Positions 17,423-33,542 of a DNA stretch of 64,000 nt are shown here, piece after piece (the stretch's first letter is position 1; every line of letters starts with the position of its first letter). The notes beneath the pieces were generated by a model. The model saw nothing but the letters and a program-made list of their open reading frames with translations. It ran no database searches and was not told where the DNA came from. This DNA is from an uncultured bacterium (GTDB taxonomy: Bacteria > Patescibacteriota > Minisyncoccia > Phycocordibacterales > GWA1-40-21), in NCBI GenBank assembly GCA_963840885.1, contig CAWJAN010000004.1, positions 47,984 to 111,983 of the forward strand, read 5' to 3'. A program made the translations under genes and the position numbers.

Positions 17423-17549
17423 GTCGTATCCTCCTTTCGGATAAGCGTGGTCAAACGAACGAGCCTTCTGAAACGATTATATGTAAAAAAAATTAGGGTG
17501 TCAACGGGACGCATATAAAAATATTTTGATATACTTAAGCATATATTTT

Positions 17550-20500
17550 ATGCCAGAAAAATTCATCCATCTCCATACCCATTCGCATTATTCCCTTCTG
17601 AATGCGCTGCCAAAAATAAAGGATCTGGTGAAAGCCGCGAAGGAAAACGGCATGCCTGCTCTCGCGCTTACGGACGCCGGAAACATGTACGGCGCCATAG
17701 AATTTTACCAGGCCTGCAAAAAAAATGAGATAAAGCCGATAATAGGCGTGGATTTTTATGTCGCATCGAGGAATCGCGCCGAAAAGCAGAGCGGCATAGA
17801 TTCAAGAAGATTCCGACTCGTCCTTCTGGCAAAAGATGAGGAAGGATATAAAAACCTGATAAAGCTCGTTACCTATTCGTACTTTGAGGGATTCTATTAT
17901 AAGCCTAGGATAGACCGAGAACTCATAGAAAAATATTCCGAAGGCCTTATATGCATAATACCGCACTTTTCCGGAGAAACTTCTATGGCGCTCAAAAACA
18001 ATGATTCCGAAAAAGCAGAAAATATAATTGGCTGGTATAAAAAAATATTCGGCAAGGAAAATTTATTTTTGGAAATAACTCATCATCCTGAAATCGATGG
18101 TCAGATAGAACTCAAGGAAAAAATAAAAAAACTGGCGCACGAAACCAGAACCGAACTTGTGGCAGCTCATGACGTATATTATCTTAAACCGGAAGACAAG
18201 CCGGCTAGGGATACTCTTGTGGAAGTGAATTCTCATGCCGATTTTTCGGAAAGAGCGGAACATGAAAGTAAGGATGATTTTTCTTTCATCGCCGCTGAAA
18301 AAGCGGAAGAATATTTCAAGAACGAGCCGGAGGCTATAAAAAACACGTTAAAAATCGCCGAAATGTGCAACCTTTCTCTTGTTCTTGGAAAAGATGCCTG
18401 GAAGTTCCCGAACTTCGTGGTAGAAAGCGGCCTATCGCACGACGAAGAGCTGAAGAAGATAGCTTTTGAAGGCATTACGAAAAGAGGCCTTCCTCATTCT
18501 CCGGACATAGTGACAAGGCTCGAATATGAGCTAGAAGTGATAAAGAACAAGGGATATTCAAAATACTTCCTTGTCGTTGCCGACTTGCTTAAATATTCTG
18601 ACGATCACGGCATCTATACCAATATCAGAGGGTCTGTTGCAGGATCGATGGTCACATATCTGACCGGCATTACAAAAGTAAATCCTCTCGAATATAAGCT
18701 GCCTTTCGAAAGATTCCTCAATCCGGAACGACCTTCAGCGCCGGATATAGATATGGACTTTGCCGACAACCGCCGCGACGAGGTCATAGATTATGTCAGA
18801 GAAAAATACGGCAAAGAAAATGTGGCGCAGATAGGTACTTTCGGAACAATGATGGCGCGCGGCGCCGTGCGCGATGTTGCGAGAGCTCTCAAATATCCGC
18901 TGACTCTTGCTGACAAAATTGCAAAGCTTATTCCTTTCGGCGCCCAGGGTTTCCCGATGACGATTGACCGCGCTCTTAAAGAAACTCCGGAGCTCAATGA
19001 CTGGTACGAAAAAGATGCGGACGTAAAGAATATCCTGGACATGGCGAAAAAAATCGAAGGATGTGCCAGACATATCAGCGTGCATGCCGCCGGCGTTGTC
19101 ATCTCGCCTGATGCGCTTGTAAATTATGTCCCTCTTCAATACGATACTAAGGAAGGAAATAAGATCATTACCCAGTACGACATGAATTCTGTCGGCGAAG
19201 ACGGCGTAGGGCTTTTGAAATTCGACTTCTTGGGAATCAGGAATCTCTCCATCCTCGCCGATGCCGTCGACCGCGTCAAAAAAATTGAAGGAAAGGATAT
19301 GGACATAGAAAAAATCCCGCTTGATGACAAAAAAACATATGAGATGCTTTCACGCGGCGACACCATCGGCGTCTTCCAGCTCAATGGACAAGGTATGACG
19401 AAAGCACTCAAAGAACTGAAGCCGACCGTCATCCACGACATAAATGTAATGGTCGCCCTATACAGGCCTGGACCTATGGACAATATATACGAATATATAG
19501 CGAGGAAGCATGGAGAAAAGCCTGTGAGTTACCTTCATCCAAGAATGAAAGATTATCTTGATACCACTTTCGGCGTGCTCGTTTACCAGGATGACCTTCT
19601 TATGACTGCCATTGAAGTCGCCGGATATACCTGGGGCGAAGCTGACAAGTTCAGAAAAGCCGTGGGAAAAAAGATTCCTGAAGAGATGGCCAAGCAGCAT
19701 ATAAAATTCGTCGAAGGCTGCGTGAAAAACGGCGACATGACGGAGAAAAAAGCCGAAGCCCTTTGGAAACTATTCGAGCCTTTTCAAGGCTACGGATTCA
19801 ACAAAGCCCATGCCGCAAGCTATGGCCGCGTCTCCTATCAGACTGCTTATATGAAAGCGAATTTTCCGGCCATATATATGTCTGCAGTGCTGAGCGCCGA
19901 ATCAGGGGACGTGGAAAAAATAGCTGAGACCGTTGCCGACTGCAAAAAAATCGGCATTCCAGTATTGCCTCCGTCGGTCAACGAATCCTTCAGCCAATTC
20001 ACGGTGGTAAAGACGCCAGGCATATCTCCGGAAGATACCGGGCCGAACCGCGACAAGATCCGCTTCGGCCTCATGACCATCAAGAATTTCGGCGAGGAGA
20101 TTTCCCACGCAATCATCCGGAACCGGAAAGAAAAAGGAAAGTTCAAATCACTCTCCGACTTTCTCGAGCGCATCATCGACAAGAATCTCAATAAGCGCTC
20201 GCTTGATGCCCTCATAAAATCCGGCGCCCTCGACGAATTCGCCGACCGCGGAATCATGCTCGCGAATATGGAAAAACTTCTGGAATACAACAAGGAAGCC
20301 GCCAAGAGCGACGGCTCGCAGGATTCTCTTTTCGGTATGTTTGACCTGTCCGGTCAGGAAGGAACAGAGGCCCATCATGAAAATCTGCGGCTTGAACCGG
20401 CATCCGATATCACTCCAAAACAAAAGCTTGAATGGGAAAAAGAGCTTCTCGGCCTCTATATTTCCGGCCACCCGCTCGACAAATACCGCGAGAAGCTGGA

Positions 20501-20810
20501 GAAACAGGAAATAAATATAAAGAAAATAAAAGAAGAAACGGATTCCGTAAGAAAAAAGATAGACGACGGCAAGCCTATAGGCGCAATGGTGGAAAGCGTC
20601 CGCTCATTCATAACAAAAAATAATGAGCAGATGGTGTTTTTGAAAATTACCGATCTTACAGGCTCCATAGAAGCCGTGGCTTTTCCGAGGACCTATTCGG
20701 TTTACAAGGATGCTTTGCAGGAGGACAAATGCATAGCCGCAATCTGCAAAGTTTCGGACCGAAACGGCGAGATCAGCTTGATAATAGAGCGGGTTAAGGT
20801 TTTGGAATAA
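17550..20810 (+). CDS. dnaE: DNA polymerase III alpha subunit
   Basis: MPEKFIHLHTHSHYSLLNALP is the PHP-domain N-terminus. DnaE palm, fingers and OB regions are present. Length ~1086 aa. The start is set at MPEKF (17550). Confidence 0.9.
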   Translation: MPEKFIHLHTHSHYSLLNALPKIKDLVKAAKENGMPALALTDAGNMYGAIEFYQACKKNEIKPIIGVDFYVASRNRAEKQSGIDSRRFRLVLLAKDEEGYKNLIKLVTYSYFEGFYYKPRIDRELIEKYSEGLICIIPHFSGETSMALKNNDSEKAENIIGWYKKIFGKENLFLEITHHPEIDGQIELKEKIKKLAHETRTELVAAHDVYYLKPEDKPARDTLVEVNSHADFSERAEHESKDDFSFIAAEKAEEYFKNEPEAIKNTLKIAEMCNLSLVLGKDAWKFPNFVVESGLSHDEELKKIAFEGITKRGLPHSPDIVTRLEYELEVIKNKGYSKYFLVVADLLKYSDDHGIYTNIRGSVAGSMVTYLTGITKVNPLEYKLPFERFLNPERPSAPDIDMDFADNRRDEVIDYVREKYGKENVAQIGTFGTMMARGAVRDVARALKYPLTLADKIAKLIPFGAQGFPMTIDRALKETPELNDWYEKDADVKNILDMAKKIEGCARHISVHAAGVVISPDALVNYVPLQYDTKEGNKIITQYDMNSVGEDGVGLLKFDFLGIRNLSILADAVDRVKKIEGKDMDIEKIPLDDKKTYEMLSRGDTIGVFQLNGQGMTKALKELKPTVIHDINVMVALYRPGPMDNIYEYIARKHGEKPVSYLHPRMKDYLDTTFGVLVYQDDLLMTAIEVAGYTWGEADKFRKAVGKKIPEEMAKQHIKFVEGCVKNGDMTEKKAEALWKLFEPFQGYGFNKAHAASYGRVSYQTAYMKANFPAIYMSAVLSAESGDVEKIAETVADCKKIGIPVLPPSVNESFSQFTVVKTPGISPEDTGPNRDKIRFGLMTIKNFGEEISHAIIRNRKEKGKFKSLSDFLERIIDKNLNKRSLDALIKSGALDEFADRGIMLANMEKLLEYNKEAAKSDGSQDSLFGMFDLSGQEGTEAHHENLRLEPASDITPKQKLEWEKELLGLYISGHPLDKYREKLEKQEINIKKIKEETDSVRKKIDDGKPIGAMVESVRSFITKNNEQMVFLKITDLTGSIEAVAFPRTYSVYKDALQEDKCIAAICKVSDRNGEISLIIERVKVLE

Positions 20811-20857
20811 AGGTTTGACACTAATGATATATTTGACTACTATATAAGAGAAAAAGA

Positions 20858-20975
20858 TTATCGCGACTACCAATCGCTTAAAAAGTAATCTTCTAATGAG
20901 AACAAATTCGGGTGGAACCGCGGTGAGAATCGCCCCGATAAAAAACGAATAATTCGTTTTTTATCGGGGCGATTT
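20858..20975 (+). promoter_or_regulatory. T-box-like leader upstream of thrS
   Basis: Consensus T-box sequence aaattcGGGTGGaACCGCGGtg at 20904-20924. A 21-bp perfect terminator hairpin with a U-tract follows at 20928-20972. A small upstream hairpin GCGA-CUACCAA-UCGC (20863-20877) has ACC (Thr) followed by A in the loop. Confidence 0.45.
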
Positions 20976-20994
20976 TATATAATAAACAAATACT

Positions 20995-22735: not shown

Positions 22736-22936
22736 ATGGAACCTTTGGGAAAAAATAAAGGGGTGATAGCGGACGGCATAGCTTTGCCTTTTTGGGCCAT
22801 ACTCCTTATGTATGCGTTCTGGAAAATAAATGGCGGAGACCAGACTGCCTGGATAATAGTACTTATCATAGGCGTCGCATCTGTAGTGGACTTCAGCCTT
22901 GTCTGGGAATTCTTTGCTAAAAGATTAAGAAAATAA
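22736..22936 (+). CDS. Hypothetical small membrane protein (66 aa)
   Basis: Two TM-like segments. A terminator hairpin follows at ~22944-22978. Confidence 0.3.
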   Translation: MEPLGKNKGVIADGIALPFWAILLMYAFWKINGGDQTAWIIVLIIGVASVVDFSLVWEFFAKRLRK

Positions 22937-23249
22937 GTCAAATAAAAAAGCAGAGGATTAATAATCCTCTGCTTCGTTTTGCAAACGATATTCATTTCTG
23001 AATTTTTCCTTTGCACGACGACACATGATTCTCTAGGCGGCCAAAACGGATGTTTTGGCCGCATTTTGGACATGGGTCGCAGCAAGGAAGTATACAAGAA
23101 CGATTCGGTTGCGGCGGTGAATTATGATGCGAACATTTGCATATGTCCTCACCAGTTGCAATAGCGGTGTTTTCAGGGTCTTTCATAACCACCTCCGGAT
23201 AAAAATGGCTTACAAAAAAATTTTACGCTTTTTTGCCTGCAAGTCAAAC

Positions 23250-23885
23250 TTAATTTATGGGATTTTCGCTTACAAACTCAGCCTGCACTATATACCTGTC
23301 TTCTTTTGCTGCAAAAGTATTGCAGGTAGTTAGGGTGAGCATTCTGTTTTTTACATCGAAAACAACTTCTATATTGCTCGCCTTATCCATGCGCACTGAT
23401 GTGACGCTGTAGACGTATTCGTTCTTGTCTGAAAATACAGAAATCTTATCGCCAGGCTTCAGGTCTTTGAGGCCCACGAAAGTCTTGTATGCCTGGTTAT
23501 GCACGACCGGAAGACTCGTGCTATGTCCGAAAATAAAAATATTCCCTATTCCGCCAAGAAGGCCTGAACCCGGATATCTCACTGCGCCTTTTTCAAGAAA
23601 ACTGTCGAGAACATCAGTGCTCGTGCTGTCTGGATTGTATACTTGCGTATCGATTCCCACTTCCGGTATTTTGACTTCTAGCGGGACTTCGCCGTTTTGG
23701 CTCAGAGTCGTATTTTCCGGATATCTTCCGACTATTGTATCGAATTCCGACGGGACCAGATTAAAAAGGTAAAGTATGGCAAAAGTCGCAGTAAGTATGA
23801 TCAAGAAATACAAAATGAACGAGAGTTTGTTCTCCCATACGAATCTGACAAGGCTTTTTGGTTTTTCTTGGCTGTTTTTCAGCAT
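23250..23885 (-). CDS. Sortase-family transpeptidase
   Basis: N-terminal TM anchor. The conserved His (IFGHSTS) and the TLxTC active-site motif (MLTLTTCNTF) are present. Confidence 0.75.
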   Translation of the reverse strand: MLKNSQEKPKSLVRFVWENKLSFILYFLIILTATFAILYLFNLVPSEFDTIVGRYPENTTLSQNGEVPLEVKIPEVGIDTQVYNPDSTSTDVLDSFLEKGAVRYPGSGLLGGIGNIFIFGHSTSLPVVHNQAYKTFVGLKDLKPGDKISVFSDKNEYVYSVTSVRMDKASNIEVVFDVKNRMLTLTTCNTFAAKEDRYIVQAEFVSENPIN

Positions 23886-23908
23886 GATTTTGGCTTAATT
23901 GTATCTAC

Positions 23909-23937
23909 TTGACAATGAAAGTCAAGTAATATATAAT
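23909..23937 (+). promoter_or_regulatory. Consensus sigma70-type promoter (TTGACA, 17 nt, TATAAT) with an overlapping inverted repeat CTTGAC-N7-GTCAAG
   Basis: The -35 element TTGACA is at 23909-23914, followed by a 17-nt spacer and the -10 TATAAT at 23932-23937, ~30 nt upstream of the 23969 ATG. The palindrome CTTGACaatgaaaGTCAAG (23908-23926) overlaps the -35. Confidence 0.45.
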
Positions 23938-23968
23938 ACTGATATTAATAAGATAAGAACATAATACC

Positions 23969-24967
23969 ATGCCTGAACAAAAAGTAGAAAAAAAGACATC
24001 AAAAGCAAGGGAATACGGGCTTATTGCGGCTATTGTAGCCGGAGTAATCTTCTTCCTCGCCATTTTCGTATACTTGCCTATAAAACTCATTCCGGCAGTA
24101 TTTTCAAACCTTCCGTCAAGTAATCAGACGGCTACCACCCTCTCGGGTGTCCCTGTTTCAGGAAATAGTTCGAACACAGCAACAAACTCAAACACCGCAA
24201 GCGGTTCTAATTCTTCAACAAATCAGAATTCAAATGTTTCCGCTTCAGCCGGAAACACATCTTATAAAGCTCCGGCTCAATACTACGGCCTTCCAGATCT
24301 TCAGGTTCAGCTTGAATCAACCGGCATTATAAATCCATATACTGGACAATATATCCAGACAGCTTATGCTGGATTCAATGACCAGATTGCGGTAAAATTC
24401 ATAGTAAGGAATGTCGGAACAAATGTTTCCGGACCATTCACGGTAAGGCTCAATATGCCGTCATCAAGAACTCCGTATTATGAATCGCCTTCCCAGCAGT
24501 CTATTCTTCCGGGAGATGCTATAGAATTCACCGGATCATTCGACAGCCCTACAGCAACAGGAATCATAACAGGATACATCACTGCCGATCCATATAATCA
24601 GATAAACGAGGTTTCAAAAGCAAACAATAATCTCGCGGTTCAATTCGATATTTCAGGAACAAACTGGCAGGGATCTATCCCTAGAGTTTCTCTTCCATAC
24701 GGCACATATTACTCTTGGGTAAATATGGACGTCGTATGTGCAGGATTCCCTTCCACGGCATATGTCGGCAACCAGGTTACCTGGACAGCCACAGCTTCTG
24801 GAGGAAACGGATACTTCGAGTATTCATGGGTTGGAACTGACGGACTCTCATCAACCGGAAATGCAACAGCCAAAACCTATTACACGACCGGCGTAAAAGT
24901 GGCCGATGTGACGGTAACGTCAAACGGCCAGTCAATCACAAAGGAGTGCCTCATAAACGTAATATAA
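23969..24967 (+). CDS. Membrane-anchored surface protein with an S/T/N-rich linker and a CARDB-like beta-sandwich domain
   Basis: N-terminal TM (LIAAIVAGVIFFLAIFVYL). A low-complexity SGNSSNTATNSNTASGSNSS linker follows. CARDB-like segment: LPDLQVQLES...IAVKFIVRNVGTNVSGPFTVRLNMP. Confidence 0.45.
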   Translation: MPEQKVEKKTSKAREYGLIAAIVAGVIFFLAIFVYLPIKLIPAVFSNLPSSNQTATTLSGVPVSGNSSNTATNSNTASGSNSSTNQNSNVSASAGNTSYKAPAQYYGLPDLQVQLESTGIINPYTGQYIQTAYAGFNDQIAVKFIVRNVGTNVSGPFTVRLNMPSSRTPYYESPSQQSILPGDAIEFTGSFDSPTATGIITGYITADPYNQINEVSKANNNLAVQFDISGTNWQGSIPRVSLPYGTYYSWVNMDVVCAGFPSTAYVGNQVTWTATASGGNGYFEYSWVGTDGLSSTGNATAKTYYTTGVKVADVTVTSNGQSITKECLINVI

Positions 24968-33395: not shown

Positions 33396-33469
33396 GACGA
33401 TTATTCATACTAGAGCAAAAATGAAATTTTGTCATTCTATTTTGCGGCAGAATAAAACTGTTTTTACTG

Positions 33470-33542
33470 AGCCACCTCCCGGGCTTGAACCGGGGACCTA
33501 TTGTTTACAAAACAATTGCTCTACCAACTGAGCTAAGGTGGC
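33470..33542 (-). tRNA. tRNA-Thr (anticodon UGU)
   Basis: The reverse complement folds as a cloverleaf: acceptor GCCACCT/AGGTGGC, D-arm GCTC-AGTTGGTA-GAGC, anticodon stem ATTGT/ACAAT with loop TTTGTAA, and T-arm CCCGG-TTCAAGC-CCGGG. CCA is not encoded. Confidence 0.8.

Follow-up and report, generated by a model that had tools for sequence, protein, structure and literature searches.

The leader of thrS, the gene encoding threonyl-tRNA synthetase, in a member of the Patescibacteriota contains a compact T-box element, located at positions 20854-20976 of a 64-kb stretch of contig CAWJAN010000004.1 (hereafter the window, i.e., all of the 64,000 nucleotides analysed). It lies in the 184-nt spacer (20811-20994) that separates thrS from the upstream dnaE gene. 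Judging from its sequence and from that of its relatives, this leader very probably functions as a tRNA-Thr-sensing riboswitch that attenuates transcription and thereby couples thrS expression to the charging of tRNA-Thr. Regulation of thrS by tRNA-Thr had been put forward in an earlier description of the window (the original prediction), and it is supported by the agreement between the codon presented by the leader and the gene downstream, by the match between the UGGA sequence of the antiterminator bulge and the U73 discriminator base of tRNA-Thr, and by the conservation of the hairpin that carries the codon. The element is the most reduced form of a T-box family that is widespread upstream of thrS in Patescibacteria, and it is, as far as the searched literature shows, undescribed. 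T-box riboswitches are a textbook case of RNA-RNA recognition and are targets for antibiotics; no literature was found that links them with the Candidate Phyla Radiation (CPR), Patescibacteria, Parcubacteria or Saccharibacteria.

Anatomy of the thrS leader

The dnaE-thrS spacer folds much more stably than its shuffled versions (z = -7.0). The T-box sequence that the original prediction had located in this spacer is present and one base longer than proposed: AAATTCGGGTGGAACCGCGGTG, also given as AAAUUCGGGUGGAACCGCGGUG, occupies 20904-20925. The conserved T-box sequence (AGGGUGGNACCGCG-like) corresponds to UCGGGUGGAACCGCG at 20908-20922, which is invariant in relatives, and the exact core GGTGGNACCNCG is found only once in the window. 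This sequence takes part in an antiterminator of canonical design, with helices A1 and A2 on either side of a 7-nt bulge and an energy of -9.0 kcal/mol (RNAeval). Directly downstream, the 21-bp terminator that had been noticed at the same time is indeed a perfect hairpin with a 3-nt loop, followed by TTTT, but its coordinates are 20929-20973 and not 20928-20972; its energy is -35.9 kcal/mol. The first 9 nt of the terminator (20929-20937) are also the 3' strands of the antiterminator, and the two structures therefore exclude each other, as anticipated for an antiterminator/terminator switch. The terminator ends 18 nt upstream of the thrS ATG and does not cover the ribosome-binding site.

On the 5' side, the small hairpin GCGA-CUACCAA-UCGC, referred to as P2, presents the Thr codon ACC (20869-20871) in its terminal loop, followed by a purine, A20872, as expected for the specifier of a leader located upstream of thrS. 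The layout of this loop, Y-U-NNN-R-A, is that of an anticodon loop, and the hairpin sits 120 nt 5' of the thrS ATG. Its ACCA sequence also resembles a tRNA 3' end. The hairpin had been proposed to be a minimal Stem I; the 4-bp specifier hairpin is found as described and is both conserved and covarying (see below), but Stem I additionally comprises an 8-bp outer helix, P1, that encloses P2. When the nascent RNA (20850-20950) is folded, i.e., when the 3' arm of the terminator is absent, the minimum free energy (MFE) structure is made of exactly P1, P2, and the bulged antiterminator. An A-rich segment occupies the site of the internal loop of Stem I in all relatives with the same two-helix organization (hereafter window-type leaders), e.g., AACAAG, AUGAAAA, or GGCAAAAG, and this loop may help to stabilise the codon-anticodon helix. 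In the purine-rich linker that follows, GAG and AAA are invariant (alignment A2).

The size of the leader is further constrained by a predicted sigma-70-type promoter, recognized in a consensus scan with 10 matches out of 12, from which transcription would start near 20850. Since this predicted promoter ends at 20843, the leader would begin only a few nt before P1 and a canonical Stem I would have no room; the space left suits P1 and P2 alone, which together amount to 39 nt. Most of L081-L089, the close relatives, have a TTGACA-type -35 and a TAxxAT-type -10 box at the corresponding place, the -35 box being weaker in L082 and L083.

With respect to the ligand, ACC is the exact pair of a GGU anticodon, which would also read ACU via a G-U wobble. 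Pairing of the UGGA of the bulge with the tRNA end, one of the checks that had been proposed, is found to be possible, as UGGA is complementary to UCCA, the 3' end of a tRNA whose discriminator base is U73. The tRNA-Thr(UGU) encoded in the window has this discriminator base, as do two further Patescibacteria tRNA-Thr(UGU) genes in the fetched loci. A gene for tRNA-Thr(GGU), the exact match of ACC, was found neither in the window nor in the fetched loci, in which only UGU isoacceptors were present. The coordinates of all these features are collected in Table 1.

Table 1. Positions of the leader elements and associated genes in the window.
Feature	Position	Strand	Description
dnaE	17526-20810		Pfam-confirmed; upstream neighbour of the spacer
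Predicted sigma-70-type promoter	20815-20843	+	TTGACA 20815-20820, 17-nt spacer, TACTAT 20838-20843
Stem I outer helix P1, 5' strand AAGAUUAU	20854-20861	+	Paired to 20885-20892 when the nascent leader is folded (MFE)
Specifier hairpin P2	20863-20877	+	Stem GCGA/UCGC (20863-20866 with 20874-20877), 7-nt loop CUACCAA 20867-20873
A-rich 3' internal loop of Stem I, UUAAAAA	20878-20884	+	Site of a second hairpin, P3, in larger relatives
Stem I outer helix P1, 3' strand GUAAUCUU	20885-20892	+	8-bp helix enclosing P2
Single-stranded, purine-rich linker (16 nt)	20893-20908	+	AUGAG 20896-20900, AAC at the Stem III site, AAA 20904-20906
T-box antiterminator	20909-20937	+	A1, 7-nt bulge, A2, loop GAGA
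Antiterminator helix A1, CGGG/CCCG	20909-20912 with 20934-20937
Antiterminator bulge UGGAACC	20913-20919		UGGA, pairing partner of the tRNA 3' UCCA
Antiterminator helix A2, GCGGU/AUCGC	20920-20924 with 20929-20933
Intrinsic terminator	20929-20976	+	Perfect 21-bp hairpin, 20929-20949 with 20953-20973, loop UAA, U tract 20973-20976
thrS, threonyl-tRNA synthetase, 578 aa	20995-22731	+	Pfam tRNA-synt_2b, HGTP_anticodon, tRNA_SAD; gene regulated by the leader (predicted)
tRNA-Thr(UGU) gene	33469-33542	-	Discriminator U73, CCA not encoded; sole tRNA gene in the window

Conservation and covariation among relatives

Related leaders were drawn from 80 species-representative loci (L001-L080), nine close and mostly syntenic dnaE-thrS loci (L081-L089), and metagenome stretches. 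The latter were retrieved with the pattern GAGNNNAAANNNGGGTGGAACCGCG, which describes the linker and the T-box core and sets no condition on Stem I; it matched 97 stretches, the first 80 of which are considered here, and still recovered many leaders with the same loop hairpin. The GGUGGAACC core is found upstream of thrS in at least 25 of the 80 species-representative Patescibacteria loci, 18 of these being of the 7-nt-loop type. Leaders that keep the ACC/ACU loop precede ThrS proteins that are 43-89% identical to that of the window, and the bulge is UGGAACC in every T-box leader seen.

A count made without any condition on the stem gave 99 distinct thrS leaders with GGUGGAACC, of which 60 have a YYACYRA motif upstream; this motif is flanked by at least four contiguous pairs in 49 of the 60, compared to a background rate of 3%. 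Exceptions within the family have this hairpin too, either with a single mismatch at a closing pair or with a variant loop. The loop itself was tallied in 54 leaders, filtered in this case for at least four stem pairs: it reads CUACCAA in 40 of them, CCACCAA in 8, CUACUAA and UUACCAA in 2 each, and CUACCGA and UCACCAA in 1 each. The loop codon is accordingly ACC in 52 distinct leaders and ACU in the two others, both of them Thr codons, and the base that follows it is A or G in all 54. In close relatives, the loop is always CUAC(C/U)AA and is carried by compensatory stems (GCGA/UCGC, GUGG/CCAC, GCGG/CCGC, AUGG/CCAU).

Covariation in related thrS leaders, which the original prediction had suggested looking for, is clear for P2. 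Among 50 distinct homologous hairpins, a set that includes cases with a mismatched closing pair, 91.7% of the cells are paired, versus 66% in shuffles, and all six pairs (6/6) change on both sides. The covariation score is 0.80, compared to 0.30 for shuffled alignments (0 of 500 reach the observed value) and 0.08-0.26 for slid partners. P2 and the antiterminator are also predicted by RNAalifold, independently, from ten window-type leaders aligned with MAFFT without editing. P1 was not returned by RNAalifold from the MAFFT alignments (A1 and A2), because these had lost the register of the outer helix. It is nonetheless supported by the strands themselves: in 13 window-type leaders, cognate strands form 7.8 bp on average, versus 5.6 bp for non-cognate strands, a value reached in 0 of 5000 permutations. 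A covariance model with four helices (model R1) scores these 13 leaders at 35-102 bits, with 75-102 bits for the ten from which it was built. In the resulting alignment all four helices covary, with 97.7% of the cells paired and a score of 0.50, compared to 0.21 for shuffled and 0.05-0.11 for slid partners; the slid-partner control is the fairer one here, since a covariance-model alignment is fitted to the structure. More specifically, all eight pairs of P1 (8/8) change on both sides, with 96% of the cells paired, and A1 and A2 are paired at 97-100% in relatives. Finally, of 62 family leaders, 55 have a terminator that is followed by a U-run, and in 45 of these the terminator and the antiterminator overlap by at least 4 nt; the recurrence of this terminator indicates that the family is transcriptional.

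This family is missed by standard annotation. At gathering thresholds, Rfam reported tRNA alone, and no T-box, over the whole window. The original prediction had named a search with the Rfam T-box model, RF00230, as its first check; a permissive local search of the spacer gave 33.5 bits and E = 3.9e-6, for a gathering score of 93. The match covers 20885-20940, and the T-box, A1, the bulge, and A2 are aligned with high posterior probability, so that the 3' part is confidently recognized. Stem I and Stem II of the model are essentially skipped, with only 12 nt of the window for 82 model positions of Stem I. RF00230 also assigned one strand to Stem III, and this assignment was rejected: by covariation, the strand is the 3' strand of P1, and two non-canonical pairs were flagged. 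In the same scan, members of the family obtained 30-36 bits, versus 111 bits for a canonical thrS T-box used as a control, and none of the five leaders scanned (L004, L031, L081, L087, L089) reached the gathering score. The low scores are explained by RF00230 modelling a canonical Stem I, and not by the absence of a T-box. Taken literally, the test that had been set, a hit above threshold, fails at the gathering score; its outcome was regarded as ambiguous, hence the use of the comparative evidence presented above. TBDB, for its part, relies on Rfam-type models and on a class II model restricted to Actinobacteria. With scores of 30-36 bits for a threshold of 93, the class escapes annotation, and regulation of aminoacyl-tRNA synthetases is consequently under-annotated in these reduced genomes.

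The genomic context of the leader is also conserved. Homologs of the window ThrS are named threonine--tRNA ligase and come from Patescibacteria/Paceibacterota, and synteny is kept in close relatives (L081-L089), in which the order is dnaE, thrS, a sortase gene (on the opposite strand in relatives), and a gene for a CARDB/PKD-domain protein. In the window, the region downstream of thrS spans 22736-24967, the CARDB/PKD open reading frame (ORF) corresponds to 23969-24967, and the sortase gene is deduced from the relatives. Other arrangements were also observed. In L001 (1927-2500), whose ThrS is 85% identical to that of the window, a compact T-box lies about 500 nt 5' of thrS with a small ORF in between, and this riboswitch would, from the gene arrangement, control a two-gene unit. 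A leader found on a metagenome contig (L132:972-1100) is near-identical to that of the window up to the antiterminator and then diverges without a terminator, which may reflect a chimeric assembly or a rearrangement. Finally, L089 has about 150 additional nt between the terminator and thrS (1840-2000), with a long inverted repeat (GTCATTCCTGCGGAGGCAGGAATC ... GGATCCCTGCCTTCGCAGTGATGAC), and its Stem III hairpin (1745-1775; CCCTGCTTCGCCGAGGCTTCGCAGGG) has a CCTGC/GCAGG core similar to this downstream repeat, a hint that these repeats are small palindromic insertion elements.

Proposed switch and competing explanations

The following scheme would account for these observations. Transcription would start near 20850, from the promoter just upstream, and the nascent RNA would fold as a two-helix Stem I whose apical loop, CUACCAA, presents ACC. 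The anticodon of tRNA-Thr, most likely that of the GGU isoacceptor, would pair with this codon in a loop-loop contact. If the tRNA is uncharged, its UCCA end would pair with the UGGA of the bulge and stabilise the antiterminator (20909-20937), allowing readthrough into thrS. With a charged tRNA, or none at all, the 21-bp terminator (20929-20976) would capture the 9 nt shared by both structures and transcription would stop before thrS. tRNA binding, charge sensing, and readthrough are thus predictions drawn from the leader sequences.

Several observations weigh against this scheme. The RF00230 score is far under the gathering score, and the model remains unaligned over its 5' half. The antiterminator (-9.0 kcal/mol) is much weaker than the terminator (-35.9 kcal/mol), and the U tract of the latter consists of four U's only. 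In the window, P2 is no longer than 4 bp, and Stem I as a whole is weak (-6.6 kcal/mol). In addition, the only isoacceptors seen are UGU, which leave a U34-C mismatch with ACC. The full-length MFE fold also pairs the specifier loop (CUACC) with GGUGG of the T-box. In full-length MFE folds, 20861-20871 pairs with 20911-20925, UAUCGCG being paired with CGCGGUGA, so that the specifier loop and its flank face the T-box and its flank; this pairing could be an off-state stabiliser or a by-product of the presence of two conserved sequences. Lastly, three elements that the literature treats as functionally required are absent: the distal platform of Stem I, required in transcriptional T-boxes, Stem II, required where Stem I is truncated, and Stem III, described as indispensable for binding of the tRNA 3' end (PMC7583486). 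As a result, function cannot simply be transferred to this leader from the T-boxes studied so far.

How could a leader devoid of these elements sense a tRNA? One possibility is that the loss of the platform, Stem II, and Stem III is offset by the stability of the kissing contact made by a loop that resembles an anticodon loop. Anticodon loops that are complementary to each other are known to bind with unusual stability. Minor-groove contacts may in addition come from the A-rich internal loop and from the purine string that has been kept, and the long 5' arm of the terminator may give extra time for tRNA capture. The balance of the evidence tips, by a narrow margin, towards a stronger statement, namely that this is the smallest natural T-box described: a mimic of an anticodon loop carried by a stem of two helices, with a sensing core of 84 nt and no platform, Stem II, IIA/B pseudoknot, or Stem III, in which the loop-loop contact, perhaps latched by the A-rich loop, would replace the functions of the lost domains.

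The same reduction could alternatively be read as decay. The leader would then be a constitutive dnaE terminator accompanied by the remnants of a canonical T-box, with thrS expressed via read-through or from a weak promoter and without any sensing of tRNA. A score under the Rfam gathering value, the absence of Stem II, Stem III, and the distal part of Stem I, all called essential in the literature, and the different arrangement in the close relative L001 would all be expected of such a relic, and a terminator located directly 3' of dnaE would also end dnaE transcripts. However, the ACC/ACU loop is invariant on compensating stems across ThrS proteins that are only 43-89% identical to that of the window, the purine string and the T-box core have been kept along with the overlap between terminator and antiterminator, and L001 has a full element, located upstream of the inserted gene. 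Decay is therefore a very improbable explanation.

The CUACCAA hairpin might also have nothing to do with tRNA and be instead a protein operator, e.g., for autoregulation by threonyl-tRNA synthetase (ThrRS), or an element of RNA stability or processing, the discriminator domain acting without a specifier. It is shaped like an anticodon arm, with a 7-nt loop of the Y-U-NNN-R-A type, and binding of ThrRS to mimics of an anticodon arm within its own leader is known from E. coli. What the loop holds, however, is the codon ACC or ACU and not the NGU anticodon that ThrRS recognises, and the third position of this codon varies from C to U alone, a synonymous change that fits G34 wobble of a GGU anticodon. 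The hairpin is moreover always tied to a T-box core in which the bulge contains UGGA, and a specifier in a terminal loop is already known in one class of T-boxes. Taken together, these features leave an operator function with very little credit.

That a working T-box would act here on translation or RNA stability, instead of or besides termination, is just as improbable, even if all terminal-loop (ultrashort) T-boxes described so far are translational and the U tract has only 4 U's: the alternative structure consists of a 21-bp hairpin that contains G+C and is directly followed by U's, the hallmark of intrinsic terminators, it ends 18 nt before the ATG, off the ribosome-binding site, and the same terminator with its U-run is found across the family.

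A tRNA-Thr-responsive attenuator of this size would have consequences beyond thrS. Structural studies attribute an essential role to each of three parts: in transcriptional switches, the distal platform of Stem I allows the tRNA to be captured rapidly; where Stem I is short, the codon-anticodon helix is stabilised by Stem II and the pseudoknot; and Stem III supports binding of the tRNA 3' end and charge sensing. If the present reading is true, the rules drawn from the platform, Stem II, and Stem III are not general, and a family reduced to a specifier loop, a purine string, and an antiterminator would define the minimal core of the mechanism. It would also lend itself, as a very small system, to structural and kinetic studies and to the engineering of tRNA-responsive switches, and extend T-boxes to the CPR.

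Larger relatives and known systems

The window-type leaders are clearly homologous to larger thrS leaders of Patescibacteria, such as L139, L114, or L031, in which the specifier hairpin belongs to a three-way junction. Both types have a CUACCAA-type hairpin, a linker ending in GAG, the core GGGUGGAACCGCG, and a long terminator upstream of thrS. Only the larger leaders have P3, a hairpin that follows the specifier hairpin and precedes the 3' strand of P1, and some of them have a Stem III; their junction strands, GAUUG and CUAA, are near-invariant and P1 is in an NNAGA/UCUNN register, these strands being read from the leader sequences. In window-type leaders, P3 has been lost and replaced by the A-rich internal loop, and the former junction sequence is part of a plain helix in the window. 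The three-way junction, in which P1 and the specifier hairpin are joined by a variable P3 (often AAUCC...GGACC), was observed in about 30 loci in addition to L139, L114, L113, L152, and L031. For P1, the NNAGA/UCUNN register gives a covariation of 0.85, versus 0.20 for shuffled alignments; an alternative pairing of the junction, AGAUUG/UAAUCU, was discarded with a covariation of only 0.09. P3 might be an analogue of Stem II.

A different organization is seen in Saccharimonadia-type and other thrS leaders (L042, L070, L074, L097). In these, ACC is in a 9-nt terminal loop (NNUCACCAA), the region preceding the T-box is longer and different (GAGCUNCG ... ACGAUAAC), and terminators are found at the end. 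This GAGCUNCG ... ACGAUAAC region may be the counterpart of Stem II and of the IIA/B pseudoknot.

With canonical transcriptional T-boxes (RF00230; thrS, tyrS, and glyQS of B. subtilis), the window leader has in common the T-box sequence, the A1/UGGNACC bulge/A2 antiterminator, and an intrinsic terminator exclusive of it, which shares sequence with the antiterminator in both. It also has a specifier codon that matches the synthetase and is followed by a purine, a bulge base (N) that matches the discriminator base of the tRNA, and a string of purines before the antiterminator. The differences lie upstream. The codon is in a terminal 7-nt loop and not in an internal Specifier Loop with an S-turn, and the long Stem I with its K-turn, AG bulge, and distal loop (the platform for the tRNA elbow) is missing. 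Stem II with its S-turn and the IIA/B pseudoknot are missing as well, P2 and the T-box being separated only by the 7-nt internal loop, the 3' strand of P1, and the 16-nt linker; to our knowledge, Stem II and IIA/B are otherwise absent from glycine T-boxes only. There is no Stem III either: the purines that flank it are present (AUGAG and AAA), with AAC alone in between, and in L087 and L089 a Stem III hairpin is inserted exactly at this site, between GAG and AA.

A known parallel to this Stem I is provided by the ultrashort ileS T-boxes of Actinobacteria (Mycobacterium, Nocardia; TBDB class II), as the original prediction had already proposed. These, the only class described so far with the specifier in a terminal loop, are translational and regulate ileS in every case (bioRxiv 10.1101/2023.02.28.530422), and they keep Stem II with its S-turn, the IIA/B pseudoknot, and Stem III, Stem II being called essential (PMC7583486; bioRxiv 10.1101/2023.02.28.530422). 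The likeness holds, since the codon is in the terminal loop in both cases, ACC in the window, the elbow platform is absent from both, and the discriminator core is the same. The window leader differs by the gene and codon concerned (thrS and ACC, not ileS and tRNA-Ile), by its intrinsic terminator in place of a sequestrator/antisequestrator pair, by its occurrence in Patescibacteria and not in Actinobacteria, and by its lack of Stem II, IIA/B, and Stem III, all of which the ultrashort class has kept. It is also smaller, with a sensing core of 84 nt from P1 to the end of the antiterminator, compared to 166 nt for the M. tuberculosis ileS construct.

The thrS operator of E. coli is another case of feedback on thrS that involves a leader hairpin shaped like an anticodon arm. 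In E. coli, the element mimics the anticodon of tRNA-Thr and binds ThrRS at the ribosome-binding site. In the window leader, in contrast, the loop carries the codon ACC and not an NGU anticodon, and the hairpin is not located at the ribosome-binding site. Unlike the E. coli operator, it is tied to a T-box discriminator and a terminator, and its expected ligand is the tRNA itself.

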